Shown: positions 38,297 through 55,598, counted from the first letter of the stretch. The stretch is 64,000 nt of DNA from Escherichia coli (GCF_044324875.1 NZ_CP172188.1), one strand, 5' to 3'. A program made the numbers and translations. Notes: generated from the sequence alone by a model not told the origin.

Positions 38297-39004
38297 GTGA
38301 GTATTTTCAGCAGCGTTGGTAGAACGTTGACCACCGCATTGTCATTTAACACGAAATCATTCACCAGCAACCTCATTAGCGACATTCTTGATAAAGCCAT
38401 ATCAGGCGGCGGGGTAAGCGGGAATTACAGTAGCGATATTGCCTACGGGAAAAATATTGTTGCTGCCGCTATGCGCATCCGTTACGCCCAGGGGTGGCAG
38501 TGGACCGTTGAAGTGGATGGTCTGAACGGCTTCGATATGTTCGTGAAGGATATCACCTACAGCAGTGGGAACATCGAGACAGAAAGCAAGGTGATCGGTA
38601 GCGTAGAATTCAGCAAGCCAACCTATGTTAGCGCCGGACCGGTCACTATGACCGTGAGGGATACCGAAGATGGCAAGATCATGGACTGGTTCAAAGAGCG
38701 TCGTTCTCGTGTAACAAATCCTGATGGAACAATAAACCTTCCTCCGGAATATCTGATGAAAATCCGTGTCTACCGGGTAACTCAGGACGGCGGAAAAGAA
38801 CTGGAAGAAGAAATGCGCGTATTTCCTACACAACTTGGGGAAATCACTCGCTCACGTGATCAGGTGTCAGAGTTCTTGTCATACCCAATCACTTTCCAGA
38901 AATACACATCCGCAGGCTCAGGTGTTTCTGCTTTGGTCAACGGTGCCGCTGGCATGGCTACAAGTGCCCTGAAAAATACTGCCAGTAACATAATTAAATT
39001 TTAA
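38297..39004 (+). CDS. phage tail-associated protein (235 aa)
   Basis: GTG start with GGAGG RBS; structural block. Confidence 0.4.
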   Translation: MSIFSSVGRTLTTALSFNTKSFTSNLISDILDKAISGGGVSGNYSSDIAYGKNIVAAAMRIRYAQGWQWTVEVDGLNGFDMFVKDITYSSGNIETESKVIGSVEFSKPTYVSAGPVTMTVRDTEDGKIMDWFKERRSRVTNPDGTINLPPEYLMKIRVYRVTQDGGKELEEEMRVFPTQLGEITRSRDQVSEFLSYPITFQKYTSAGSGVSALVNGAAGMATSALKNTASNIIKF

Positions 39005-39007
39005 AAA

Positions 39008-39026
39008 GCCCCGGACAGGCCGGGGC
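39008..39026. terminator. bidirectional terminator hairpin shared by the tail operon and ant copy 3
   Basis: gccccggacaggccggggc hairpin between convergent genes. Confidence 0.55.
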
Positions 39027-39034
39027 AACAGTAA

Positions 39035-40033
39035 TTAACTAACAATCCAGTCCATAGCAATAACATCCTCTGGAGCTAAATCAATAGCATGGATTTTCCC
39101 GTCACGGATGGTGCGCCAGTGCTTTCGTGATCCACCTTCGGGCCATACCCATACACCTTCAGGCCAGGAAGAACGACGACACACTGTTGCGTATCCAGTC
39201 CTGATCTTCTCTCTGACGGTATGCAGTGACAGATTATCTTTTGGGATTTCCGGTAAAGGATGATGGATTGCCTGAAACAGCCCCATCTTCGGATGATACC
39301 AGCGTTTGTTGCGTGGTTCTGCCTCCGACATAACCTGCTTGAAGGCTTTCCGGAAGGGGGCCAGGGCCACAATGGAGCGTCGGGCAAGCAAACCATCTGG
39401 AGTTAAAAACTCATGCGTATCGGTGGGAATCCGGTAAGCGTTGACAAGGTTGCGGCATTTGGCTTCAGTCAGGCCACATTTCGCCGCCAGCTGGCGGTAG
39501 CCAATGTAGCCTTCCGGCATATTGCCTTTCTTGATTTGCTCGACGGTTTCAGCGACTTTGGACACTTGTGCCGATACCTCGGCTACCTGGGCATTTACGG
39601 CGTTAATCCGGCGTTCATGTTCAAGATGCATTTGCGCCATTTCAGCCAGGATTTCGGCTTTTGATTTTAGCGGTGAGTGCTCCGGTATTAATTGCTTAAT
39701 ACGAAAATAGCTGTTTACCAGCTCACGTTGCACTTGCCAGGCCAGATCGTCATTGAATGACTTAACAATCATTAGATAACCGGACTCAGTGAACACGCGC
39801 AAACCGCGCGGGGGGACATTAATTCCAAAAGTGTCAAAAACGCCCTTTTCAGAGTAATCAATAAGATAGGTATCTACACCATCAACAAAACGGTGCTTGT
39901 TACGATGGAAAGTTGTTTTAGCTAATCCTTTTGGTCGCTCGTGCACCTCATCAATCATCTCAAAGGTCACTACACGCTGATTTTTATATTCGAGAGTCGG
40001 GAATGGTTTGTTATTGATAGTTACTGCGTCCAT
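39035..40033 (-). CDS. ant: antirepressor (Ant), copy 3, with a different N-terminal domain
   Basis: C-terminal ~200 aa near-identical to copy 1; N-terminal 130 aa unrelated to Rha (KilA-N/ORF6N-like); ATG 40033 overlaps the icd stop. Confidence 0.8.
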   Translation of the reverse strand: MDAVTINNKPFPTLEYKNQRVVTFEMIDEVHERPKGLAKTTFHRNKHRFVDGVDTYLIDYSEKGVFDTFGINVPPRGLRVFTESGYLMIVKSFNDDLAWQVQRELVNSYFRIKQLIPEHSPLKSKAEILAEMAQMHLEHERRINAVNAQVAEVSAQVSKVAETVEQIKKGNMPEGYIGYRQLAAKCGLTEAKCRNLVNAYRIPTDTHEFLTPDGLLARRSIVALAPFRKAFKQVMSEAEPRNKRWYHPKMGLFQAIHHPLPEIPKDNLSLHTVREKIRTGYATVCRRSSWPEGVWVWPEGGSRKHWRTIRDGKIHAIDLAPEDVIAMDWIVS

Positions 40034-40248
40034 TAATGCACCTCCACGCAGTTCATTGGGCGGTTCCAGTAGGTCAAAACGTCCAGGGCATCGAGTTTGA
40101 AGCGAGCCGCAAAAATGCACGGATCTGTAGGAAGAAATGAACGCGCTTCAGCCTCAGTAGCTGCCATTACGGTGATATAGGTGTGTTTTGTGCAGGAATA
40201 AAAGCGCCAGATGAATTCTGGACGTGAGCAAGGATTGGCATTAACCAT
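40033..40248 (-). CDS. icd: Icd-like protein, module 3
   Basis: Paralog (MVNANPCSRPEFIWRFYSC...CVEVH). Confidence 0.7.
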   Translation of the reverse strand: MVNANPCSRPEFIWRFYSCTKHTYITVMAATEAEARSFLPTDPCIFAARFKLDALDVLTYWNRPMNCVEVH

Positions 40249-40299
40249 AGTTACGGCCTCATGTACAGGTTTAACAACCTGCTACCCGCTGTCAAACAG

Positions 40300-40390
40300 G
40301 TGGCAGGGCGTGACAGGGTTGACAGACTGGCGTACATGAAACCAGCAGGCCGAAGCCTCCCCATCACGCCCCACCATAATTCGGGCGTAA
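40300..40390 (-). ncRNA. c4-like antisense RNA region of immunity module 3 (boundaries approximate)
   Basis: Paralogous to 30020..30110, with the pairing element changed to ctgtcaa and both target sites changed to ttgacag. Confidence 0.45.
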
Positions 40391-40561
40391 CGTGGTTTAC
40401 GGACACAAAAATACCGCAATATCGGAAATCTGCGGATGTCCGCATGTACATTCAGGCTGTCAAACCTGGTCGCAGAATTTGCTACGACGGCGTGAATATA
40501 AGCCTGAACATCTGGAAGATCAACATCAAATTGTTGATGATTTATTTTATTATTCATGTTT

Positions 40562-40592
40562 GAAAATTCAAATTATTTTTCTAACACAATAC
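40562..40592. promoter_or_regulatory. operator-like motif upstream of immunity module 3
   Basis: gaaaattcaaattatttttctaacacaatac; inverted copy of the module 2 site. Confidence 0.4.
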
Positions 40593-40699
40593 GAAAGGGA
40601 GTGAAAATTATTCTCCAGCGTTAACCCAAACAAAATTATGTGTGCTGGAGGGTTGCTCATTTCCCGTCAGCACCCACGCCCTCAACGATAGCGGGTAGG

Positions 40700-41006: not shown

Positions 41007-41762
41007 TTAAGACTGCTGATAGGTAAATTTTATCCTGGTAACTTTGCCGCCTTCCGTCACCTCTGAGAAGACTATTTTCATTTTTGTATTTTTTTCAATC
41101 TCTGCTACAGCCTTCGTTAAAAAACTTCTCTTAAATTCGGCATACCGCTGATAGCTTTTTGGTAACCCATAACGCTCCCGCATCCATTCGACGCCAAGTA
41201 TGGCAAAGCCGCTTCCATCATCCTTCCTGTACTGGCATAAGGACTCATAAAGCCGCATAGAATAAGGATTTGTAAGGCGAGATACTTCGGTAAAATTCAG
41301 CCTTGTGAATCTCTTATCAAGCAGAGTAAAAAACGGCATGAGATATGGATTAAGATGAATAATGTAAGTCCCACGCCGTGGTGAATAGGCATCCTTAATC
41401 ATCCAAGGATAAGACTCATAACTGTCTTCTGATTCGGTCGATTCATCAGGGTTATATATCGTAACTTTCTTCTCGCTAAGACCTGAAATGGCCTTACGAA
41501 TATCCTTGCTGGCTTCAGCAGAGGGCAAATTATACATCTCTGCATATTCGTTGACCGTCAACTCACAGGCACCTGAACCAAGAACGCCATCCTTAGAAGC
41601 ATAGCGAAGCCTTCCCACCACAATAAACAACAGTCGCTTTTGGTCGCGAGTCAGGTGATAAGCAGCCTCCGTGATCTCATTGGCTTGTGCCAAACTACGA
41701 CTAATAGGTGTCGCTGACTCAATCAGGCTGACGGCTTTTGCTGTTAATTCCGCTCTGTTCAT
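41007..41762 (-). CDS. repA: RepE(F)-like plasmid replication initiator
   Basis: Collinear with F-plasmid RepE as recalled (EAAYHLTRDQKRLLF..., EASKDIRKAI, NPYLMPFF, RLNFTEVSRLTNPYSMRLYESLCQYRK); likely start ATG 41762 gives 251 aa. Confidence 0.8.
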   Translation of the reverse strand: MNRAELTAKAVSLIESATPISRSLAQANEITEAAYHLTRDQKRLLFIVVGRLRYASKDGVLGSGACELTVNEYAEMYNLPSAEASKDIRKAISGLSEKKVTIYNPDESTESEDSYESYPWMIKDAYSPRRGTYIIHLNPYLMPFFTLLDKRFTRLNFTEVSRLTNPYSMRLYESLCQYRKDDGSGFAILGVEWMRERYGLPKSYQRYAEFKRSFLTKAVAEIEKNTKMKIVFSEVTEGGKVTRIKFTYQQS

Positions 41763-41783
41763 AACCCTGTGTGATCCTTCAAA

Positions 41784-41910
41784 TGGTGAGGGCAATTTTT
41801 ACATCACTTTGAGGGCAATTACTACACCTTTTGAGGGCAAATCTTACACCTTCTGAGGGCAAATCTTACACCGATCGTATCTAATTGAGGGCAAATCTTA
41901 CACCAGACTC
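41784..41910. repeat. five direct iterons upstream of repA (origin / autoregulation)
   Basis: Direct repeats of about 22-24 bp (ttgagggcaa(a)tcttacacc) at 41784, 41808, 41832, 41856, 41886; one inverted copy near 42027. Confidence 0.7.
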
Positions 41911-43026: not shown

Positions 43027-46000
43027 ATGGCGAGCACTCCATATGTCAAAAGCCCTAGAAGAAAAATACAAAGCTCAAGCCGGGAAACGTTGATCGCCGC
43101 TGGCAAAAGAGAGGTTATTTTGAAAGAGAATAAAGACCGTATCGCAATAATTGACGCTATTCAGGGGGCGAGCACAAACGAACTTAAGGCTCTTGCTGAG
43201 ATCAAAGACGCCATTCTCTCTGGTAGAGGGTCTATAACTCAACTTGGTGAAAATCAAGGTAAAGTAAGTCAAAGACTATCCCGTAGACGCATAGCAAGCG
43301 AACCCTATGTCTCTGGTGATGCCAAGAATACCCAAGCTAACCCATATATAAAACGCCTTCCGATGAAAAAAGGGAGGACGCAGGTCAACAACGGAGAAGA
43401 ACGTCTCATTGTTGCAACCAACACATCAGAGCGCGTTCATTTTGCGTCATCACGCCAGTCCGCCCAAAAGTTGAAAGGTTCTGTGCCAGTAGCCGCTAAT
43501 TCTGCTCCTCTTGAACCACAATCCCCCCAAAGCCAAAAAGGACCGCTTCGGGATAGTAATGGACGCTTTGTATCCCAGAAAAACAACGAAGATATAGCCA
43601 GAAAAAAAGAATGGCAGAACGCACGTAAGGCCGACGCCAAACTACAAGAAGGCTTCCTCCGGAAATTAGGCTCCATTATAGGGGTAGATGGCAATCAGTC
43701 TTCCAGTGAAGAGTCTTTAACAGATGCCGCAGGTGTCGGCGCTGGTGGTCCGTTGTGGATGGCTGCTCGCGGCATGTACGACATTACTAAAGAGATCACA
43801 GGTAAAGCAGAATCTCTTAAAGAATGGGTAGAAAAGGGGAAAGGTGAGGCTTTATCTTCGAAAGCGACATCACCAGCTATCACTTATCCGGCGGTGGTGA
43901 ATACTCAAAAAGCAACCTCTGCAACAGCATTTAATAATGCTGTTGAGACAAAATCAGCACAAGCAGTAGAAGAGCAAACAAAAATTCTTCAGACCAATGA
44001 CAACAAAATAATTGATGGTCTGGAAAATGTCTCCGACGAAGTAGTTAAGCTACGCAAATCAGTATCTTCTGGGAATAAGTTCGGCTTAAGTGATCTCTGG
44101 AGAAATCGAGCAAGCAGAAGAAATAAAATCAATATTGGCGATCAGGCTGGTAAAAATAAACGGAACAAACCGAAAAGGAAAGGTCGCAATCTGGGGAAAA
44201 ATGCCCTTTCTGTTGGTGAAAAAGCCGCTGCCGGAACCGCTGCTGCTGGAGCTGGTGCCGGAGCTGCAAAGACTGTTAAAACAAAGGTTAGTAAAGCCAA
44301 AGACATCAGCACCACAAGCGACGCATCTAAGGGTATTGCTAAAGAAACAAAAAACACAGCAAAGGCAGTTAAGCCAGCAGGTGTTGTTGCCGAAGAGGCC
44401 ACAATTAAAACAGGTGAAACTGTTGCAAAGAAAAAAACCGAATCCGTAGCCCTCAAAAGTGCTGCAAAAATAGGTGTTAAATCAGCTGCTTCTACAGCTG
44501 CAAGAGCTATCCCGATCATCGGATCGCTGGCTATGGCGGGATATGACGCTATAGATGGTTACACTGATACAGATGCGCAAAAGGCAGCCTTTGGATTAAG
44601 TGACGATGATGCTGTATCCGAACAGCAAAAAACGGCTTACGCAACAGCTAATGTGCTCGATATGGGGGGCTTGGTGTCGGGCGCAACGAACTTGATAGGG
44701 AAAGGAATTTCTGCGCTAGGATTTGAAAGAGCAGGTGAAAAACTTCAGAATTTTGATACCGGAGATATTGCTCGTGGTGTTAACGGCGCGGTAGATATCA
44801 CCAAATCTGTTTTTGGTAACCTTAAGGATACATTTTTATCCACTGACGAAAACACGAAACAAGTAAAAAAAGCTGTTGAAGACGGCACAAAAAAAACTGT
44901 CGATGCGATTCATTCTCTTGGTGAACAATTACAAGGTGGGCGTAATGGCGAGGATGGAGTTGGTGAGCACGGGTATACTTCTCCAACTGAATTTAGTGCA
45001 CCTGCCAACAACACCATTGCAGCGGATCTGAATATTGGCGGCAGCAACGCTAAAAACCGCAATTACCGAAATAATAATCTCGGCAATCTTGTTTTTGCCA
45101 ACCAGGAAGGGGCGACGCTGGAATCGCCAAATGCAAAAGGTGAACAACGTTTTGCGCGATTTAACACACCTGAAGAAGGGATCAGGGCACTGGCAAACCA
45201 GGTTTCCAGCTATTACAACGGCACCAGTGCCGCAGCGGGATATCAGAAGTTACAGACGGTATCCAGCATCATTTCAAAATGGGCACCGCCAAATGAGAAC
45301 AATACTAACCAATATATTGATAACGTCAGTAAATATCTTGGTGTATCGCCTAATGAAAAAATAGATGTCAGCAAACCAGAAGTTATGACGCAATTAGTTC
45401 GTGCAATTGCGACGAAAGAAGGCGGAAATCCGGCAGTTAATAATGAGTTCATTAAGAACGCACTTGGAGCATTTAACACAAACACTGGTCGATGGGAGGG
45501 ACAATTCTCTGACGAAACATTGGCGCGGATTAATAAAATTCAGAAAGAAAATGGTGGTCAGCTAATTGCCCGCGATTCGCAATATAGTGTTGGTCGCAAG
45601 GTAAAATATGCTAATGGAAAATCTCCAGCTCAACCAGTTTTGAATGCCGTTCCGACAGCAACACAACAGCCAATTGAGGTTGCACAACATGCCCAGGCAG
45701 TCAAAAAGCCACAAAAAACAGGTAACCAACCACAACCGATTAATCCAGAGAACGCTGATGTTAATACCGGCTCTCCATCGAGTTTGCTTGAGCGGTTAAT
45801 CACAATAAATGAAAGCGGAATCAGTGGTGCAAGTAATTTATTTGGCGGCGCGGCTACCAGCCTTGCTGGAACAAGTCTGGACCTGGTAAAGGATTTTGCG
45901 TTAGCTACTTCGTTTGGTTCTATATCTTCGCTTTCCGAAAAAGCGAAAGGAATGGATCAGGCTCTTACTGAAAAGATATCCAGCTTAACCGGTAAATCTT

Positions 46001-47091
46001 TTGGATTTAAAAAAGCTTCTCAAGTGGCTGATATCGCAACAGCCATACAACAAAAACGCACTGTTAATCACGATACAGAAATCATTGATCTACTTCCGGG
46101 AGATCAAGTATCCCCTTCTACTCCGAAAACTCCACAGCAGGAGCAGGCTCTGGCAATCAACCAGGCTATGGAGGGCTTTTCGTCTGCAGCGCCAGCACCG
46201 AAAACCCCACAGCAGGAGCAGGCTCTGGCAATCAGCCAGGCTATGGCGGGCTTTTCGTCTGCAGCGCCAGCACCGAAAACCCCACAGCAGGAGCAGGCTC
46301 TGGCAATCAACCCGGCTATGGAGGGCTTTTCGTCTGCAGCGCCAGCACCGAAAACCCCACAGCAGGAGCAGGCTCTGGCAATCAGCCAGGCTATGGCGGG
46401 CTTTTCGTCTGCAGCGCCAGTAGTTACCTCTGGAAAACGAACTATCACGGCACCAAGTGATGTGCAGATTTATGACAACGGCTACAAGGTGGTTACAGGT
46501 GAGGATAAGAGCTTCTTTGGTTCGCTATTTGATTCCACGGTGTCAGGGCTTAAACAGACAGGAACCGCAGTAATTCCTGCCGTTGGCGATAACCTTTCAC
46601 GACTTGTTGGGGGGATTGATAGTACAGGGATATTGAACGATCTTGTAATGCAGTCTACTGGGCAGAATAGTGCGATTGCGCGAGCTATTAGCCCATTAAC
46701 AAGAAATGTTGGAGACTGGTTGAATGGGGGGATTCAACAAACCGCTAATAGCATTAGGGGAATAGCAACTGGTGCCAATAACGCCATATTTGGCTCTGCT
46801 TCAGCTGTGCAAGAACCTTTTCTTGCTATGCCGCCACAACTCCCTACTGTAACCGATCTCGCACGAAGCGGAATAAGACAACCATTAACTACTGACACTA
46901 TAAATAACGATCCTGCTATGTTGAAGGCGCTGGATAACATCTGCTCTATCCTGAACGATCTGCTGAATGTGAACAAGAACAATACAAAAGGCGATCCGGA
47001 TAATGTTGTCAAAACATCGCAGCCGCAGCCGCGACCACGTGCGAGCACAACTATTAATGACCAGTCGCTGGATGCTCTGCTTGAGGATTAA
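43027..47091 (+). CDS. large virion protein (1354 aa), Sit/tape-measure-like
   Basis: Very long ORF directly upstream of baseplate genes; Lys/Ala-rich N-terminal third; internal 25-aa tandem repeats. Confidence 0.55.
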   Translation: MASTPYVKSPRRKIQSSSRETLIAAGKREVILKENKDRIAIIDAIQGASTNELKALAEIKDAILSGRGSITQLGENQGKVSQRLSRRRIASEPYVSGDAKNTQANPYIKRLPMKKGRTQVNNGEERLIVATNTSERVHFASSRQSAQKLKGSVPVAANSAPLEPQSPQSQKGPLRDSNGRFVSQKNNEDIARKKEWQNARKADAKLQEGFLRKLGSIIGVDGNQSSSEESLTDAAGVGAGGPLWMAARGMYDITKEITGKAESLKEWVEKGKGEALSSKATSPAITYPAVVNTQKATSATAFNNAVETKSAQAVEEQTKILQTNDNKIIDGLENVSDEVVKLRKSVSSGNKFGLSDLWRNRASRRNKINIGDQAGKNKRNKPKRKGRNLGKNALSVGEKAAAGTAAAGAGAGAAKTVKTKVSKAKDISTTSDASKGIAKETKNTAKAVKPAGVVAEEATIKTGETVAKKKTESVALKSAAKIGVKSAASTAARAIPIIGSLAMAGYDAIDGYTDTDAQKAAFGLSDDDAVSEQQKTAYATANVLDMGGLVSGATNLIGKGISALGFERAGEKLQNFDTGDIARGVNGAVDITKSVFGNLKDTFLSTDENTKQVKKAVEDGTKKTVDAIHSLGEQLQGGRNGEDGVGEHGYTSPTEFSAPANNTIAADLNIGGSNAKNRNYRNNNLGNLVFANQEGATLESPNAKGEQRFARFNTPEEGIRALANQVSSYYNGTSAAAGYQKLQTVSSIISKWAPPNENNTNQYIDNVSKYLGVSPNEKIDVSKPEVMTQLVRAIATKEGGNPAVNNEFIKNALGAFNTNTGRWEGQFSDETLARINKIQKENGGQLIARDSQYSVGRKVKYANGKSPAQPVLNAVPTATQQPIEVAQHAQAVKKPQKTGNQPQPINPENADVNTGSPSSLLERLITINESGISGASNLFGGAATSLAGTSLDLVKDFALATSFGSISSLSEKAKGMDQALTEKISSLTGKSFGFKKASQVADIATAIQQKRTVNHDTEIIDLLPGDQVSPSTPKTPQQEQALAINQAMEGFSSAAPAPKTPQQEQALAISQAMAGFSSAAPAPKTPQQEQALAINPAMEGFSSAAPAPKTPQQEQALAISQAMAGFSSAAPVVTSGKRTITAPSDVQIYDNGYKVVTGEDKSFFGSLFDSTVSGLKQTGTAVIPAVGDNLSRLVGGIDSTGILNDLVMQSTGQNSAIARAISPLTRNVGDWLNGGIQQTANSIRGIATGANNAIFGSASAVQEPFLAMPPQLPTVTDLARSGIRQPLTTDTINNDPAMLKALDNICSILNDLLNVNKNNTKGDPDNVVKTSQPQPRPRASTTINDQSLDALLED
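46125..46430 (+). repeat. four tandem 75-bp coding repeats (PAPKTPQQEQALAI-N/S-QAM-E/A-GFSSAA)
   Basis: Near-identical 75-bp units in tandem within the 1354-aa gene. Confidence 0.8.
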
Positions 47092-49848: not shown

Positions 49849-50295
49849 ATGGCTGAAAATTTAAAGGCAAGAGATGGTAACCGCCTGTATAAGGCGCAAT
49901 TGCTTTCCTACTATTATTCACGCCGCGCTGAGTCGGCGATCGGCAAAGGTGCGCGTTTTGTTATCTCTAAGGCGTATTGGTGCAAATCTAGTCTGGTAAC
50001 TGCTAATGGTGCAGGAGGCTGGAATATAGCGGACATTCCACTCGATTTTAAATTGAGTAACGCTCAACAGTTTGCTGTGTCCGATCTGATATTGTCCAGT
50101 GTGGATGGGATTATCACTATCAATGCAGCCTTCCCTCAAGAAAGAATGCCGGATAACACGCCTTACGACTTTAACACGCTTGTGCTTGTGGATGCTGAGG
50201 AACAGGCTTTTGCTGTGCTTTGCACCCAGCAAGACACCCTCTATAAAGGTAAACGTTACAGTATTCTCATGACAATCGAGCAAGTTGAGGGTTGA
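49849..50295 (+). CDS. phage tail protein (148 aa)
   Basis: ORF directly upstream of and overlapping the tail fiber gene start. Confidence 0.4.
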   Translation: MAENLKARDGNRLYKAQLLSYYYSRRAESAIGKGARFVISKAYWCKSSLVTANGAGGWNIADIPLDFKLSNAQQFAVSDLILSSVDGIITINAAFPQERMPDNTPYDFNTLVLVDAEEQAFAVLCTQQDTLYKGKRYSILMTIEQVEG

Positions 50296-50297
50296 TT

Positions 50298-53180
50298 ATG
50301 GGTGCTGATAAAACGAACAACATAATGACACTATCCTCTGGTGTCTCACAGCCGTTGCTTGCTGATGTTCAATATTTCGAACTCTATAGTAGTTCGGCTC
50401 TTAACAGAAAACTTAAAAATATTGTTTTGCCGGGCTTTTACTGTGGATTTGAACCGGTTCCCGGCACAGGGTTGAGTGTCCGTATAACTTCTGAAAACTC
50501 AGAAGGTAAAGGGGCTGCTTCAGTAGATGTAAATAATGTTCAGATATCCGTTCAGCAAATAGAAGATGTGACTGTCTCGGTAAAGGCAGGGGCTACCAAC
50601 ATTATTGTGCTGGAAGCCAATTTTGAACATGGTGTAAAAACGACACAGGTAGATAGCGCATCTTCTGTCAGTGCTGCAAGAATTTACGCGCGTACGGACA
50701 ATACTATTGGGCAGAATCAAATTGAATTATGTCGAGTTATCGTGCCTAGCGGCGCAACGGCTGTGACTAAAGAAATGATTGTGCTTAAATACCGGGTTAA
50801 CCGTGCTGTTGGTGTCGAATTCTCTAATGAAATAAGCAGTACAGAAGAAAGAAAAGCGGCTACACCTCTGGCTGTCAAAACTCTCCATGATTTGGTTGAT
50901 ACAAAAGCCCCGATCAACAGCCCGAATCTGACAGGAACGCCAACAACACCAACAGCGCCACAGGGGACTAATAATACCCAGATCGCAAGCACGGCTTTCG
51001 TTATGGCCGCGATTGCCGCACTTGTAGATTCGTCACCTGATGCACTTAACACTCTGAACGAACTGGCCGCCGCGCTTGGTAATGATCCGAACTTTTCCGC
51101 GACAGTGACTCGCCTGATTGGAGAAAAAGTTGCCAAAGATGGCGACACCATGACAGGTAAACTTAATCTGCCGCAGACCTCTGCATTCGGCATCAATACC
51201 AACAACAGACTGGGGGGGAACTCTCTGACGCTGGGCGATCACGATACCGGAATTAAACAGGAAGGAGACGGCGTATTGTCCGTGTTCGCCAACGGCCAGC
51301 GTGTGTTCCTTTTCACGGAAAGAAGTATTACCTCATTAAAAGAGCTTCTGATAGGGGATGCACGTTATAGCACCGGTGGTGATGTGTATGGCAGTCAGTG
51401 GGGAGACGGTTGGTTGAGTTCCTGGTTAAGTGCTCGCTTTGCAGAGTGTGCCAACGCCAGCCATAACCACCCTTGGAGCCAGATTACCGACGTACCAGCA
51501 GCCAGCCTCACTCAGAGCGGCATTGTACAACTTAGTAGTGCCATCAACAGCACTTCTGAAACATTAGCTGCAACTCCAAAAGCGGTTAAAGCTGCATACG
51601 ATCTAGCAGCCGGAAAGGCACCATCCAGTCATACACACCCCTGGAATCAGATCACTGGTGTGCCAACAGCTTCATTGACAGCGAAAGGCATCACTCAGCT
51701 CAGTAGTGCTACTAACAGCACGTCTGAAGTGCTGGCCGCCACACCAAAAGCTGTCAAGGCTGCATATGACCTGGCTAACGGGAAGTATACAGCCCAGGAT
51801 GCAACCACGACACAAAAAGGGATAGTTCAGCTCAGTAGCGACACCAACAGCACTTCTGAAACATTAGCTGCAACTCCAAAAGCGGTTAAAGCTGCATACG
51901 ATCTAGCAGCCGGAAAGGCACCATCCAGTCATACACACCCCTGGAATCAGATCACTGGTGTGCCAACAGCTTCATTGACAGCGAAAGGCATCACTCAGCT
52001 CAGTAGTGCTACTAACAGCACGTCTGAAGTGCTGGCCGCTACACCGAAAGCGGTTAAAGCTGCATACGATCTAGCAGCCGGAAAGGCACCATCCAATCAT
52101 ATACATCCCTGGAATCAGATCACTGGTGTGCCAACAGCTTCATTGACAGCGAAAGGCATCACTCAGCTCAGTAGTGCCACTAACAGCACGTCTGAAGTGC
52201 TGGCCGCTACACCGAAAGCGGTTAAAGCTGCATACGATCTAGCAGCCGGAAAGGCACCATCCAGTCATACACACCCCTGGAATCAGATCACTGGTGTGCC
52301 AACAGCTTCATTGACAGCGAAAGGCATCACTCAGCTCAGTAGTGCTACTAACAGCACGTCTGAAGTGCTGGCCGCTACACCGAAAGCGGTTAAAGCTGCA
52401 TACGATCTAGCAGCCGGAAAGGCACCATCCAATCATATACATCCCTGGAATCAGATCACTGGTGTGCCAACAGCTTCATTGACAGCGAAAGGCATCACTC
52501 AGCTCAGTAGTGCCACTAACAGCACGTCTGAAGTGCTGGCCGCTACACCGAAAGCGGTTAAAGCTGCATACGATCTAGCAGCCGGAAAGGCACCATCCAA
52601 TCATATACATCCCTGGAATCAGATCACTGGTGTGCCAACAGCTTCATTGACAGCGAAAGGCATCACTCAGCTCAGTAGTGCCACTAACAGCACGTCTGAA
52701 GTGCTGGCCGCTACACCGAAAGCTGTCAAGGCTGCATACGATCTGGCAAACGGAAAACAACCGGCAGATGCCACGCTCACTGCTCTGGCAGGACTTGCCA
52801 CTGCAGCAGATCGGTTGCCTTATTTTACCGGAGCAGACCGCGCAGCGCTGACAACCCTTACAGCTATTGGTCGCGCTATTATCGCTAAGGGCAGTATAAA
52901 AGATGTCCTCAATTACCTTGGTTTAGGAGAAGGCTCGGCGCTACCCGTTGGTGTGCCTGTTCCATGGCCCACCGCCACACCGCCAGCAGGCTGGTTAAAG
53001 TGCGACGGGCGCGCCTTTACAAAAGAACAATATCCTGTTCTGGCCAGAGTCTACCCGACCCTCCGTCTTCCCGATTTACGCGGTGAGTTTATCCGTGGAT
53101 GGGACGACGGGCGAAAAGTTGATACAGGGCGCGATTGCTTTCACGGCAAGGGGTACAAGTTTTTCTCATTACGGAGGTAA
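50298..53180 (+). CDS. tail fiber protein (S-like) ending inside the invertible-region repeat
   Basis: Tandem fiber repeats (ATPKAVKAAYDLA, HTHPWNQITGVPTASLT) and the conserved C-terminal junction PAGWLKCDGRAFTKEQYPVLAR...LRGEFIRGWDDGR. Confidence 0.85.
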   Translation: MGADKTNNIMTLSSGVSQPLLADVQYFELYSSSALNRKLKNIVLPGFYCGFEPVPGTGLSVRITSENSEGKGAASVDVNNVQISVQQIEDVTVSVKAGATNIIVLEANFEHGVKTTQVDSASSVSAARIYARTDNTIGQNQIELCRVIVPSGATAVTKEMIVLKYRVNRAVGVEFSNEISSTEERKAATPLAVKTLHDLVDTKAPINSPNLTGTPTTPTAPQGTNNTQIASTAFVMAAIAALVDSSPDALNTLNELAAALGNDPNFSATVTRLIGEKVAKDGDTMTGKLNLPQTSAFGINTNNRLGGNSLTLGDHDTGIKQEGDGVLSVFANGQRVFLFTERSITSLKELLIGDARYSTGGDVYGSQWGDGWLSSWLSARFAECANASHNHPWSQITDVPAASLTQSGIVQLSSAINSTSETLAATPKAVKAAYDLAAGKAPSSHTHPWNQITGVPTASLTAKGITQLSSATNSTSEVLAATPKAVKAAYDLANGKYTAQDATTTQKGIVQLSSDTNSTSETLAATPKAVKAAYDLAAGKAPSSHTHPWNQITGVPTASLTAKGITQLSSATNSTSEVLAATPKAVKAAYDLAAGKAPSNHIHPWNQITGVPTASLTAKGITQLSSATNSTSEVLAATPKAVKAAYDLAAGKAPSSHTHPWNQITGVPTASLTAKGITQLSSATNSTSEVLAATPKAVKAAYDLAAGKAPSNHIHPWNQITGVPTASLTAKGITQLSSATNSTSEVLAATPKAVKAAYDLAAGKAPSNHIHPWNQITGVPTASLTAKGITQLSSATNSTSEVLAATPKAVKAAYDLANGKQPADATLTALAGLATAADRLPYFTGADRAALTTLTAIGRAIIAKGSIKDVLNYLGLGEGSALPVGVPVPWPTATPPAGWLKCDGRAFTKEQYPVLARVYPTLRLPDLRGEFIRGWDDGRKVDTGRDCFHGKGYKFFSLRR
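51460..52750 (+). repeat. about seven tandem ~165-bp coding repeats inside the tail fiber gene
   Basis: Near-identical 55-aa units repeated; several DNA copies identical over more than 100 bp. Confidence 0.8.
52911..52933. promoter_or_regulatory. candidate invertase crossover site (cix/gix-like), left
   Basis: aattaccttGGTTTAGGAGAAgg at the outer edge of the left inverted repeat; mirrored at 54945..54970. Confidence 0.45.
52920..53133. repeat. left inverted repeat of the invertible region (~215 bp, ~98% identical to 54746..54960)
   Basis: Hand reverse-complement comparison shows only about four mismatches. Confidence 0.8.
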
Positions 53181-53334
53181 TTTCGACATTGGGTCTGGTT
53201 ATTCAATCAATAACTACGACCAATAGTTGTTTCTAACAACCAAGATTTTCCCGACCTTCATGAGGGCCTTTAACGAGGTGATGGGGTTAACATGTAACCA
53301 TTCGTCCTGGTAACATTGTTTAATTATATGGTAT

Positions 53335-53560
53335 GCAGGCTATAAACGTTGGTTTAGGAGAAGCGGCGCTATGCGTTGGTGTGCCTGTTCAGTGGCCCCC
53401 GCCACACCGCCATTGCAGGCTTAATTAAATTGTGAGGGCGCGTTTACAAAAGAACAATATCAGTTCTGGCCAGAAAACCCGACCCTCCGCTTCCCGATTT
53501 AGCGGTGCGATATCCGTGGATCACTATGACGAGACGAAAGGTTGATACACGGGCGTGCCT
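53335..53560. repeat. degenerate third copy of the inverted repeat with its own crossover-like site (plus orientation)
   Basis: About 80-85% identity to 52920..53133 with indels; begins ctataaacgttggtttaggagaag. Confidence 0.55.
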
Positions 53561-54239
53561 CTTTGGAGTTTCGCCCTTGGGACTATCGTATCCGGTTTTG
53601 ATGCGCCGATGCATACCGGAGATTTCAGGTTACGTGGTCGGCTGCCACACAAACGGATGGTGACGCATTTAACCTGATCACCTGGGGGTATAAATGGCAA
53701 AAAGTGGATATTTGATGCATCCCAACCGGTGCACAAAGATATGACTGGCGGACTTACCACCAGCAAAACAGCCTGCCACAATATGGGATTTAACTATATC
53801 GTGAAGGCGGCGTATACCGTTACTGAACGGCATAGAGCCGCAGTGGCGCTGGCCAGCTGCAACGCCAGAAACCTTGTGATATCCAGGCGTTCAGCTCGTC
53901 GATATAATCCAGCACGGCGGGCAGTTTTGCCGTTTCTTCCAGTTTCAGACTGCGACCTGCCCGCCGTTTGGGTTGATAGGTCGACGGCTTCACGCCTGGA
54001 TCCACCCGGCACTGGCGTTGCAGTTGGCAAGTCTCCAGCTCTGCGGCTCTATGCCGGCTCAGTATCACGCCGCCCACGATTACCGTTCCAGGTATCCCAT
54101 GGTGTGGCAGGCTGTTTTGTGGTGGTGTCCGCCGGTAATCACCCGGTTGAGGTGCATCAGAACGGGGTTCCCGTTTTCCGTTTATACCGTCTCCCGCGGT
54201 GATTAGGGTTACATGCGTCCCAAATCCGTTCAGTGTGGC

Positions 54240-54480
54240 AGTCCGAAACCACGTAACCCGATATCCTCCGGTATGCATTATCATCACGAACCGGAGTACG
54301 ATAGTCCCAAGGGCGAGATACTGAAAGTAGCGCACGCCCGGTATCAACCTTTCGTCCGTCATATCCACGGATAAACTCACCGCGTAAATCGGGAAGACGG
54401 ATCGGTTAGACTCTGGCCAGAACAGGATATTGTTCTTTTGTAAACGCGCCCTCACAATGTAACCAGCCTGCTACGGCGGT
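54240..54480. repeat. degenerate fourth copy of the repeat (minus orientation), inverted partner of 53335..53560
   Basis: Reverse complement aligns to the 53335..53660 copy, including gcccttgggactatcgta. Confidence 0.5.
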
Positions 54481-54564
54481 GTGACGGTGATACCCTTCGC
54501 ATACAGGCTTCTGATAGAGGTCAGAATAGTAGCCTGCATACCATTGTCTGACATTACCACGATG

Positions 54565-54960
54565 TTACGAGGATCGCTGAATGTTGTCCCGTCCGGCATT
54601 TTGAAGGCCCTCACGAAGGTCTGTAATGGAATCTTCATTGTTGAATCCCATGCCGACTATCCCCGAGGTTCCCGTAGTGTCCTGGTTATAATAATCCAGC
54701 ATTGCTGTTCTTAACAGCGTTGCCCCTTGTGCGGACAGCAACTTACGTCCTGTATCAACTTTGCGCCCGTCGTCCCATCCACGGATAAACTCACCGCGTA
54801 AATCGGGAAGACGGAGGGTCGGGTAGGCTCTGGCCAGAACAGGATATTGTTCTTTTGTAAAGGCGCGCCCGTCGCACTTTAACCAGCCTGCTGGCGGTGT
54901 GGCGGTGGGCCACGGAACAGGCACACCAACGGGTAGCGCCGAGCCTTCTCCTAAACCAAC
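54565..54960 (-). CDS. alternative tail-fiber C-terminal cassette (start-less; joined to the fiber gene only after inversion)
   Basis: Minus-strand frame encodes the same PVPWPTATPPAGWLKCDGR...RGWDDGRKVDTGR junction followed by a different 57-aa tail. Confidence 0.5.
   Translation of the reverse strand, partial: VGLGEGSALPVGVPVPWPTATPPAGWLKCDGRAFTKEQYPVLARAYPTLRLPDLRGEFIRGWDDGRKVDTGRKLLSAQGATLLRTAMLDYYNQDTTGTSGIVGMGFNNEDSITDLREGLQNAGRDNIQRSS
54746..54960. repeat. right inverted repeat of the invertible region
   Basis: Reverse complement matches 52920..53133. Confidence 0.8.
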
Positions 54961-54970
54961 GTTTATCTCT
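54945..54970. promoter_or_regulatory. candidate invertase crossover site, right
   Basis: ccTTCTCCTAAACCaacgtttatctc adjacent to the invertase gene. Confidence 0.45.
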
Positions 54971-55025
54971 CAAATCCTCCCCACATTATCTCAGTACTTT
55001 AACCACTCAAAAGGGAGTATTTTTA

Positions 55026-55598
55026 ATGCTGATTGGCTACATACGTGTGTCAACAAATGACCAAAACACAGATTTGCAACGCAATGCATTAATGTGCGCA
55101 GGATGTGAACAGATTTTTGAGGACAAAATGAGCGGAACCAAGTCGGAACGACCAGGCCTGAAACGCGCTTTAAAGTGCCTTAAAAGAGGGGATACATTGG
55201 TGGTCTGGAAGCTGGATCGGTTGGGTAGAAGAATGAAACACCTCATTGCTCTCACAGAAGAGCTACGCGCAAAAGGTGTCAATTTTCGCAGTCTGACGGA
55301 TTCAATCGATACCAGCACTCCGATGGGAAGGTTCTTTTTTCATATGATGGGTGCACTGGCAGAAATGGAGCGTGAACTGATAGTTGAGCGCACGCTGGCA
55401 GGACTGGCTGCTGCGCGATCACAAGGAAGAGTTGGAGGACGTCGCCCGAAACTGACGAAGGAGCAGCATGAGCAGATCGCAAGATTGCTCCAGAAAGGGT
55501 ATGACAGAAAGCGGCTGGCAATTATCTATGATATTGGACTGTCAACGATCTACCGCTATCACCCTGTTGGGACTGTCATAACGCAACCTGAAATGTAA
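55026..55598 (+). CDS. cin: Cin/Gin/Hin-family serine DNA invertase
   Basis: MLIGYIRVSTNDQNTDLQRNAL...LVVWKLDRLGR...FRSLTDSIDTS collinear with Mu Gin as recalled; ATG 55026 (ORF track 54897 extends into the repeat). Confidence 0.9.
   Translation: MLIGYIRVSTNDQNTDLQRNALMCAGCEQIFEDKMSGTKSERPGLKRALKCLKRGDTLVVWKLDRLGRRMKHLIALTEELRAKGVNFRSLTDSIDTSTPMGRFFFHMMGALAEMERELIVERTLAGLAAARSQGRVGGRRPKLTKEQHEQIARLLQKGYDRKRLAIIYDIGLSTIYRYHPVGTVITQPEM

Follow-up and report, generated by a model that had tools for sequence, protein, structure and literature searches.

In-frame tandem repeat arrays of variable copy number in the Sit-like and tail fibre genes of a D6-like element of Escherichia coli

Two genes for virion proteins in a 64,000-nucleotide stretch of Escherichia coli DNA (GCF_044324875.1 NZ_CP172188.1; the whole stretch is referred to here as the window) each contain a run of tandem repeats that are closely alike at the DNA level. 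This raises the question of how such repeats arise, whether their number differs between related elements and what a change in number would mean for the tail. The element that carries both genes can be placed by its relatives. Between 43 and 58 kb, the window is 93.5% identical to Escherichia phage D6, and the D6 genes aligned with this part carry annotations of similarity to P1 sit, pmgA, bplA, 16, R and S. D6 is a relative of P1 with a plasmid lifestyle. Many non-mobilizable plasmids of ~90 kb from E. coli and Salmonella match the window more closely than D6 does, and pMTY1586_untypable1 is 99.3–99.6% identical to it, with the flanks of both arrays almost free of gaps. A replication gene with iterons lies upstream of the first repeat-bearing gene:

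41007–41795, minus strand: Rep3-type replication gene, upstream of sit, with four 22-bp iterons alongside

The match to D6, the closer matches to ~90-kb plasmids and the Rep3 gene with its iterons thus identify the window, on sequence grounds, as part of an E. coli plasmid prophage that is D6-like and related to P1.

The first repeat-bearing gene encodes a Sit-like protein with the following layout:

43027..47091, plus strand: gene for the 1354-aa Sit-like tape-measure/tail injection transglycosylase, corresponding to D6 gene 40
45049..45474, plus strand: muralytic (endolysin/transglycosylase-like) domain, aa 675–816, from phmmer against PDB
46009..46122, plus strand: unique 5′ part of the inter-domain linker, aa 995–1032, from comparison of homologues
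46123..46422, plus strand: Sit array of four 75-bp (25-aa) tandem units in the order A-B-A′-B, aa 1033–1132, from Tandem Repeats Finder and unit comparison
46423..47088, plus strand: conserved C-terminal domain of Sit, aa 1133–1354 (222 aa), from identity among homologues

Alignment of the protein with the product of D6 gene 40, which bears the annotation 'similar to P1 gene sit', gives 86% identity over 1020 residues and 73% over the last 251 aa. The order of D6 genes 41–38 is kept, with a pmgB-like gene before sit and pmgA/bplA-like baseplate genes after it. The window's Sit thus resembles those of P1 and D6 in gene position, in homology to D6 gene 40 and in the succession of a muralytic and a C-terminal domain. 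Exactly this protein is recorded at NCBI as WP_395762629.1, which has a single source contig of 97,923 bp. A Pfam-A scan of the 1354 residues returned no family, and the muralytic domain was seen via PDB sequences only (endolysin 7q47_A, E=1.5e-15; Gp29 9vvp_L, E=3.6e-13). The C-terminal domain belongs to a small family, with 18 matches among 1.84 billion representative proteins, nearly all of them at the C terminus of proteins of 1100–1450 aa. When a phage collection was searched with this module, D6 was the sole isolated phage matched and P1 gave no match. Among repeat-bearing homologues, the last 206 aa (aa 1149–1354) are 96.6–100% identical.

The array lies 3′ of the muralytic domain and 5′ of the conserved 222-aa C-terminal domain, in a linker that is not conserved. 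Tandem Repeats Finder reports it at 46123–46420 (period 75, 4.0 copies, 95% matches, score 554), and the unit bounds are 46123–46197, 46198–46272, 46273–46347 and 46348–46422, in frame with the ORF at 43027–47091. The 25-aa unit, PKTPQQEQALAI[N/S]QAM[E/A]GFSSAAPA, has a high content of Pro, Gln and Ala, with three prolines in each copy. The original prediction had called these repeats perfect, but the units differ from one another at 1–4 of 75 positions. Since these differences fall in the order A-B-A′-B, the last event was probably the duplication of a two-unit block. Small ORFs that run over the array (46001–46423 on the plus strand and 46104–46448 on the minus strand) were dismissed as by-products of a repeat free of stop codons.

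Comparison with homologues indicates what kind of place the array occupies. The preceding part of the linker (aa 995–1032) is identical in all repeat-bearing homologues, whereas alleles of the D6 type have unrelated sequence instead. At the array position, the Sit of phage D6 differs from that of the window in having an unrelated 50-aa linker without any repeat. In distant homologues, the stretch between the conserved motifs '...TGKxFGF' and '...NGYKV' is short and shows no conservation, and Pro, Ala, Ser and Gly abound in it. Therefore, given these short stretches and the unrelated linker of D6, the array can be read as an expansion in a tolerant inter-domain spacer. The linker between the muralytic and C-terminal domains is probably flexible, a view that rests mainly on the missing conservation because the AlphaFold2 model, made for aa 960–1354 only and from a 12-sequence alignment, is of low confidence (pLDDT 49, pTM 0.19). 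In this model, three of the four units appear as short helices within coil, which would be compatible with a flexible linker and proves nothing.

The number of units was surveyed in the best 120 cluster representatives of Sit, with linker length converted to units. Within this set, 54 proteins have the 50-aa linker of the D6 type (0 units), and linkers of 76, 101, 126, 151, 176, 201 and 226 aa, always in 25-aa steps, correspond to one to seven units and occur in 8, 21, 17, 6, 10, 2 and 1 proteins, respectively. Proteins whose identity to the window's Sit is 96.7% or more over the first 994 aa and 99.5% or more over the last 206 aa carry 1, 2, 3, 4 or 7 units, and the copy-number variation proposed at the outset is thus present among near-identical proteins. 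Members of two 90%-identity clusters carry 2, 3, 4, 5 or 8 units. The 8-unit array comes from one complete plasmid, and intact genes span 1–8 units. A match occurred in 77 of the 5426 complete genomes of E. coli, every time on a plasmid, and the 25-aa array was found in plasmid prophages only. An array of 14 units is present in one rearranged 120-kb plasmid, in which sit is truncated at its 5′ end by ~267 codons; this fits drift after relaxed selection. The record of this plasmid has 28 match places, which suggested a huge array, and these 14 units are what it turned out to contain. A prior description of the Sit 25-aa repeat was not found in the open-access literature and, within that literature, the array and its range of 1 to 8 (or 14) units in D6-like plasmids are new here.

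The second array lies in the shaft of a tail fibre. Its gene and modules are arranged as follows:

50298..53180, plus strand: S-like tail fibre gene with a frameshifted 3′ end, from Pfam and synteny with D6 gene 35/P1 S
51462..52769, plus strand: seven shaft modules, M1–M7, with HxHPW and Phage_fiber_2 motifs, from motif and unit comparison
51462–51629, plus strand: M1, which differs at 41–58 of 168 positions and is ~70% identical to the rest
51630–51929, plus strand: M2, a 300-bp composite (56 + 44 aa) with a second fibre-repeat motif
51930–52097, plus strand: M3, identical to M5 and different from M4 at 4 positions
52098–52265, plus strand: M4, different from M6 at 1 position
52266–52433, plus strand: M5, the same as M3
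52434–52601, plus strand: M6, different from M4 at 1 position
52602–52769, plus strand: M7, different from M3–M6 at 13–16 of 168 positions
51930..52601, plus strand: M3–M6 together, four near-identical 168-bp units with 0–4 differences, a recent expansion by the difference matrix
52950..53093, plus strand: phage tail Collar domain, aa 887–934 (Pfam PF07484, E=7.8e-15)

The ORF was called from a TTG at 50292, whereas relatives use the ATG at 50298. Pfam Phage_fiber_2 (PF03406) matches the protein in nine stretches (E=1.8e-158; 514 bits against a gathering cut-off of 22), a single repeat has a match in the solved Mu S fibre, and the Collar region (aa 881–944) matches the T4 gp37 tip 2xgf (E=1.6e-12). 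Tandem Repeats Finder reports a period of 168 bp at 51827–52756 (5.5 copies, 95% matches, score 1671), rather than the ~165 bp estimated in advance. Seven H[NTI]HPW motifs occur, one per module; the near-identity ascribed to all of the repeats is limited to M3–M6, which follow one another in the order A-B-A-B′. Both arrays are therefore real where they had been placed (46123–46422 in sit and 51462–52769 in the fibre gene). Going by the scores of Tandem Repeats Finder, neither is a chance occurrence, and the reading frame is kept in each.

The fibre modules have recognizable counterparts in well-studied fibres. In the consensus of the T4 gp34 repeat, whose fold has been described (PMC5537660), a Gly-led strand is followed by a helix that starts with [ST]-P, and both features can be read in the sequence of the window's fibre (...KGITQL...AATPKAVKAAYDLA...). 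The T4 repeats are old and diverged, whereas in the window the motif is joined to HxHPW and a super-unit of 56 or 100 aa has been amplified in near-identical form. In trimeric fibres and spikes such as T4 gp37, R-type pyocin fibres and P2 gpV, HxH sites bring together six histidines from three chains around one Fe (PMC6116203). The window's fibre is alike in having seven H-x-H motifs, one per module, with a trimer assumed from its family, and these motifs are putative iron clamps. The match between the window's fibre and T4 gp37 covers the Collar region only. The gp34-type match and the HxH motif together mean that the 56-aa unit is best read as one module of the shaft; each would form a mixed alpha/beta fibrous repeat of the gp34 type, as predicted from the Pfam match, together with a probable metal clamp.

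The fibre varies among relatives in the same modular fashion. Homologues (n=120) have 3–7 HxHPW modules at 56- or 100-aa spacing in many arrangements, and the fibres of close relatives have an array with a 300-bp period, present in 3.1–4.7 copies of 98–99% identity. Repeat number is thus not invariant across related elements in either gene (1–8 units in Sit and 3–7 modules in the fibre), which was the comparison suggested with the original prediction. P0207, the nearest allele, is 100% identical to the window's fibre up to the array and has three modules against the window's seven; in the alignment the window's fibre has gained 224 aa (4 x 56) cleanly and in register, and M3–M6 correspond to this insertion. 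This gain, together with the two-unit block duplications in both arrays, agrees with the recent expansion that had been proposed. Removal of the second repeat motif (132 bp) from the 300-bp unit leaves the 168-bp unit, which is the outcome expected if a crossover took place between the two motifs. Duplication of fibre motifs is a textbook route of fibre evolution. In D6-like plasmids, the fibre region has been described as the most divergent part (PMC6799933).

The reading that probably accounts best for these observations, and in which good confidence can be placed, is that both arrays are in-frame variable-number tandem repeats, one in a tolerant spacer of Sit and the other in the modular shaft of the fibre. 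Units would be gained and lost by unequal homologous recombination or by replication slippage between near-identical copies. Since the units measure 75 and 168 bp, both multiples of 3, such gain or loss alters the length of the protein and does not switch the gene off; phase-variable on/off repeats differ in this respect, as slippage in the window's arrays keeps the frame. In Sit, the array would act as a spacer that joins the muralytic domain to the C-terminal domain, at a position where intact genes tolerate anything from the unrelated 50-aa linker of D6 up to eight units. In the fibre, four extra modules would give a longer shaft and would leave untouched the receptor-binding tip, which a neighbouring invertible segment would supply.

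Could the Sit array instead belong to the ruler that sets tail length? Each 25-aa unit would then add about one ring of tube and sheath, and populations would differ in the length of their tails; this is possible but rather doubtful. A ring of the tail tube measures ~4 nm. Sit is the accepted tape measure of P1, which has 52 tube rings for a 1140-aa Sit (PMC12810830, PMC9024508). At ~4 nm per ring, each residue along the entire protein would have to span ~1.8 Angstrom. P1 would thus need nearly all of Sit to span its tail, so that the C-terminal third may count as well and 25 aa would come to ~4 nm, about one ring. The cryo-EM study that counts the 52 rings of P1 does not resolve Sit itself (PMC12810830). 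In TP901-1, in-frame deletions in the tape-measure protein shorten the tail linearly, and its repeats have been proposed to ease duplication and deletion (PMC5099701). The TP901-1 protein and the tape measures covered in a study of 'units, duplications and losses' (PMC3271669) are like the window's Sit in having tandem repeats whose duplication or deletion alters length. However, those repeats are short (11 or 18 aa in TP901-1), marked by aromatic residues, diverged and located inside the ruler region, whereas the units in the window are 25 aa long, Pro/Gln/Ala-rich, ~95% identical in DNA and located past the muralytic domain. This location is outside the N-terminal alpha-helical two-thirds of Sit that have been proposed as the P1 ruler (PMC9024508). 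The three prolines in every unit, which is modelled as a short helix in low-confidence coil only, also speak against a ruler. Moreover, at the array position the linkers of D6-type alleles and of distant homologues are short and not conserved, so that slack in the linker could be absorbed with the number of rings unchanged.

On the 'one ring' reading of the Sit unit, arrays of 1–8 units would give tails up to ~seven rings apart, perhaps matched by fibre modules, which is unlikely; if true, a repeat array would be driving a polymorphism of tail length that segregates in nature. In the few complete pairs, the number of Sit units and the length of the fibre (0 units with 939 aa, 1 with 867, 2 with 1257, 3 with 960, 4 with 828 and 7 with 1514) follow no trend, a pairing that is limited by differences in architecture among the fibres of relatives (some are of the Gp34_trimer type, 1245–1514 aa) and by the many contigs that end inside the fibre gene.

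The spacer and shaft reading takes the arrays as real, and the assemblies themselves give some cause to ask whether the unit counts in the window are artefacts of collapsed or expanded repeats. Four database Sit proteins tagged 'partial' end within the array, one allele (P0253, the sole such allele in the database) has a frameshift within it, and short-read contigs carrying sit often end within the fibre gene. Both loci are therefore sites of assembly failure, as the original prediction had expected in calling them collapse-prone. The adjoining invertible segment of the same assembly is also abnormal, with 84 indels and every cassette frameshifted, and the exact Sit protein is known from one contig only. 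An artefact is nevertheless very unlikely. Both arrays are in frame and consist of ordered variants (A-B-A′-B in Sit; M3 equal to M5 and a single difference between M4 and M6 in the fibre), and their flanks are 99.3–99.6% identical to a relative, almost without gaps. The arrays are thus taken as real, with the exact counts being those of one assembly. Many independent complete plasmids have the same types of array with other counts, and the variation between elements would be real even if the window's own count were wrong.

The proposal that the arrays are adaptive contingency loci, in which length switching would serve host range, fibre reach past capsule or O-antigen, or escape from systems that target the tape measure to block entry or exclude superinfection, can draw on the quick shifts of copy number among near-identical Sit alleles, on the fact that most differences between Sit units alter an amino acid, on the divergence of the fibre region in D6-like plasmids (PMC6799933) and on the suggestion that repeats fine-tune fibre length (PMC6116203), but it is improbable, as the largest Sit array (14 units) sits in a 5′-truncated, presumably dead gene and fits neutral drift, the Sit linker is unconserved across the family, and the host specificity of the fibre resides in the invertible tips and not in the shaft.

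Repeats in tape-measure proteins and modular repeats in fibres are already well known, and the present findings fit current understanding and leave it unchanged. Their use is partly practical. Work on phage-plasmids of the D6/P1 type often concerns their role as carriers of resistance genes. In the assembly and typing of these elements from short-read data, breaks or collapse are to be expected at both genes, and length differences between proteins annotated as 'transglycosylase' or 'tail fiber' should not be taken to indicate different genes. The natural Sit alleles with 0–8 units also form a ready-made series for asking whether the part of a myophage tape measure that follows the muralytic domain contributes to tail length. 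In the same way, fibre alleles ranging from 3 to 7 modules could serve to relate shaft length to adsorption.

Downstream of the shaft, the fibre gene leads into an invertible segment:

52915..53131, plus strand: left arm of a 217-nt inverted repeat, within the fibre gene, 98% complementary to the right arm
53132..54745, no strand assigned: invertible segment that carries a tail-fibre-assembly gene and alternative fibre-tip cassettes, each of them frameshifted, from the arms and ORF inspection
54746..54962, minus strand: right arm of the inverted repeat, 98% complementary to the left arm
55023..55598, plus strand: Cin/Min-like serine DNA invertase (Pfam Resolvase, E=2.3e-50; HTH_7, E=1.3e-12), in the position of D6 cin

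The segment is like those of the Cin/Min/Gin type (the C segment of P1, cix of D6 and Min of p15B) in that a serine invertase lies by inverted repeats that start in the fibre gene, and unlike them in that its cassettes are frameshifted. Min is the multiple-inversion system of p15B. The comparison with p15B Min also draws on published work (PMC6906374). In the window, the fibre ORF ends 15 codons past the frameshift, whereas intact alleles run on for ~70 more residues to '...RPRNIAFNYIVRAA'; with its tip frameshifted, this copy may therefore not yield a working fibre. The coding sequences of the other tip cassette and of the assembly-chaperone gene are likewise broken up across several frames, and a search of the segment for intact alternative tips or chaperone genes found none in the window. 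The 84 small indels relative to a relative fall within 2.1 kb, and the best match to the segment in the 5426 complete E. coli genomes has ~85% identity, with none closer. Nanopore homopolymer errors were rejected as the source of the indels, of which 7 of 84 lie in homopolymers and insertions balance deletions; the damage may be either real decay or the consensus of mixed inversion isomers. Extra partial copies of the inverted repeat suggest several crossover sites.

The homologues of Sit, the tape-measure/transglycosylase protein of the window, include a class of 1105-1138 aa (database proteins P0055-P0060, P0243, P0244 and others) whose N-terminus is, as annotated, ~220 aa shorter and whose size is close to that of P1 Sit. 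Members of this class carry the same repeat as the window's Sit, in 2-4 units, together with the same C-terminal domain, and their shorter N-terminus may stem either from annotation of the start further downstream or from a tape measure that is truly shorter. A distant homologue of 1320 aa (P0274) contains a separate 28-aa tandem duplication around aa 1099-1155, which is positioned within the conserved C-terminal domain. The largest Sit array seen comprises 14 units (350 aa) and is encoded on a plasmid of E. coli strain 11 (NZ_CP195333.1; locus L015, 970-5010), where the sit gene has a junction to a head-processing gene in place of its first ~267 codons. Among the cluster members of the window's Sit in the set P0249, P0250, P0252, P0260 and P0253, four 'partial' proteins stop within the 25-aa array, and these ends are contig breaks. 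One allele in the same set has a frameshift within the array that places three units in the wrong frame.

The period of the tail fibre array is 168 bp in the window, whereas it is 300 bp in three relatives, with 3.1-4.7 copies that are 98-99% identical:

L002, 13243-14169, fibre array of 300-bp period
L003, 8146-9548, fibre array of 300-bp period
L004, 11026-12269, fibre array of 300-bp period

The 168-bp unit resembles a 300-bp unit that has lost its second repeat motif. Upstream of the array, the D6 homology of the window's fibre gene stops at ~50944, and a ~190-bp patch (50903-51096) shows 85% identity to gene H, which encodes the tail fibre in phage P2 and related phages; the fibre has a mosaic junction here.

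The fibre ORF of the window runs into an invertible segment and ends prematurely; an invertase is encoded beside the segment:

53132-54745, invertible fibre-tip segment, with arms at 52915-53131 and 54746-54962
55023-55598, invertase

Compared with a relative, the segment contains 84 small indels, and its flanks are 99% identical and almost free of gaps. Frameshifts are numerous throughout the segment, where both the tail-fibre-assembly gene and the alternative tip are broken across several frames. These frameshifts could have arisen by decay, or they could represent a consensus of mixed inversion isomers.

An insertion of 1.67 kb (38968-40633), absent from D6 and the related plasmid pMTY1586, separates the tail tube gene from the replication gene. 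The features of this region are:

39035-40120, minus strand, ORF of 361 aa with an ORF6N domain, in the insertion
41007-41795, minus strand, Rep3-type initiator gene
41787-41872, four 22-bp direct repeats TGAGGGCAAATCTTACACCTT, adjoining the initiator gene

The 22-bp repeats are probably replication-origin iterons, and the array is common to D6 and other relatives.
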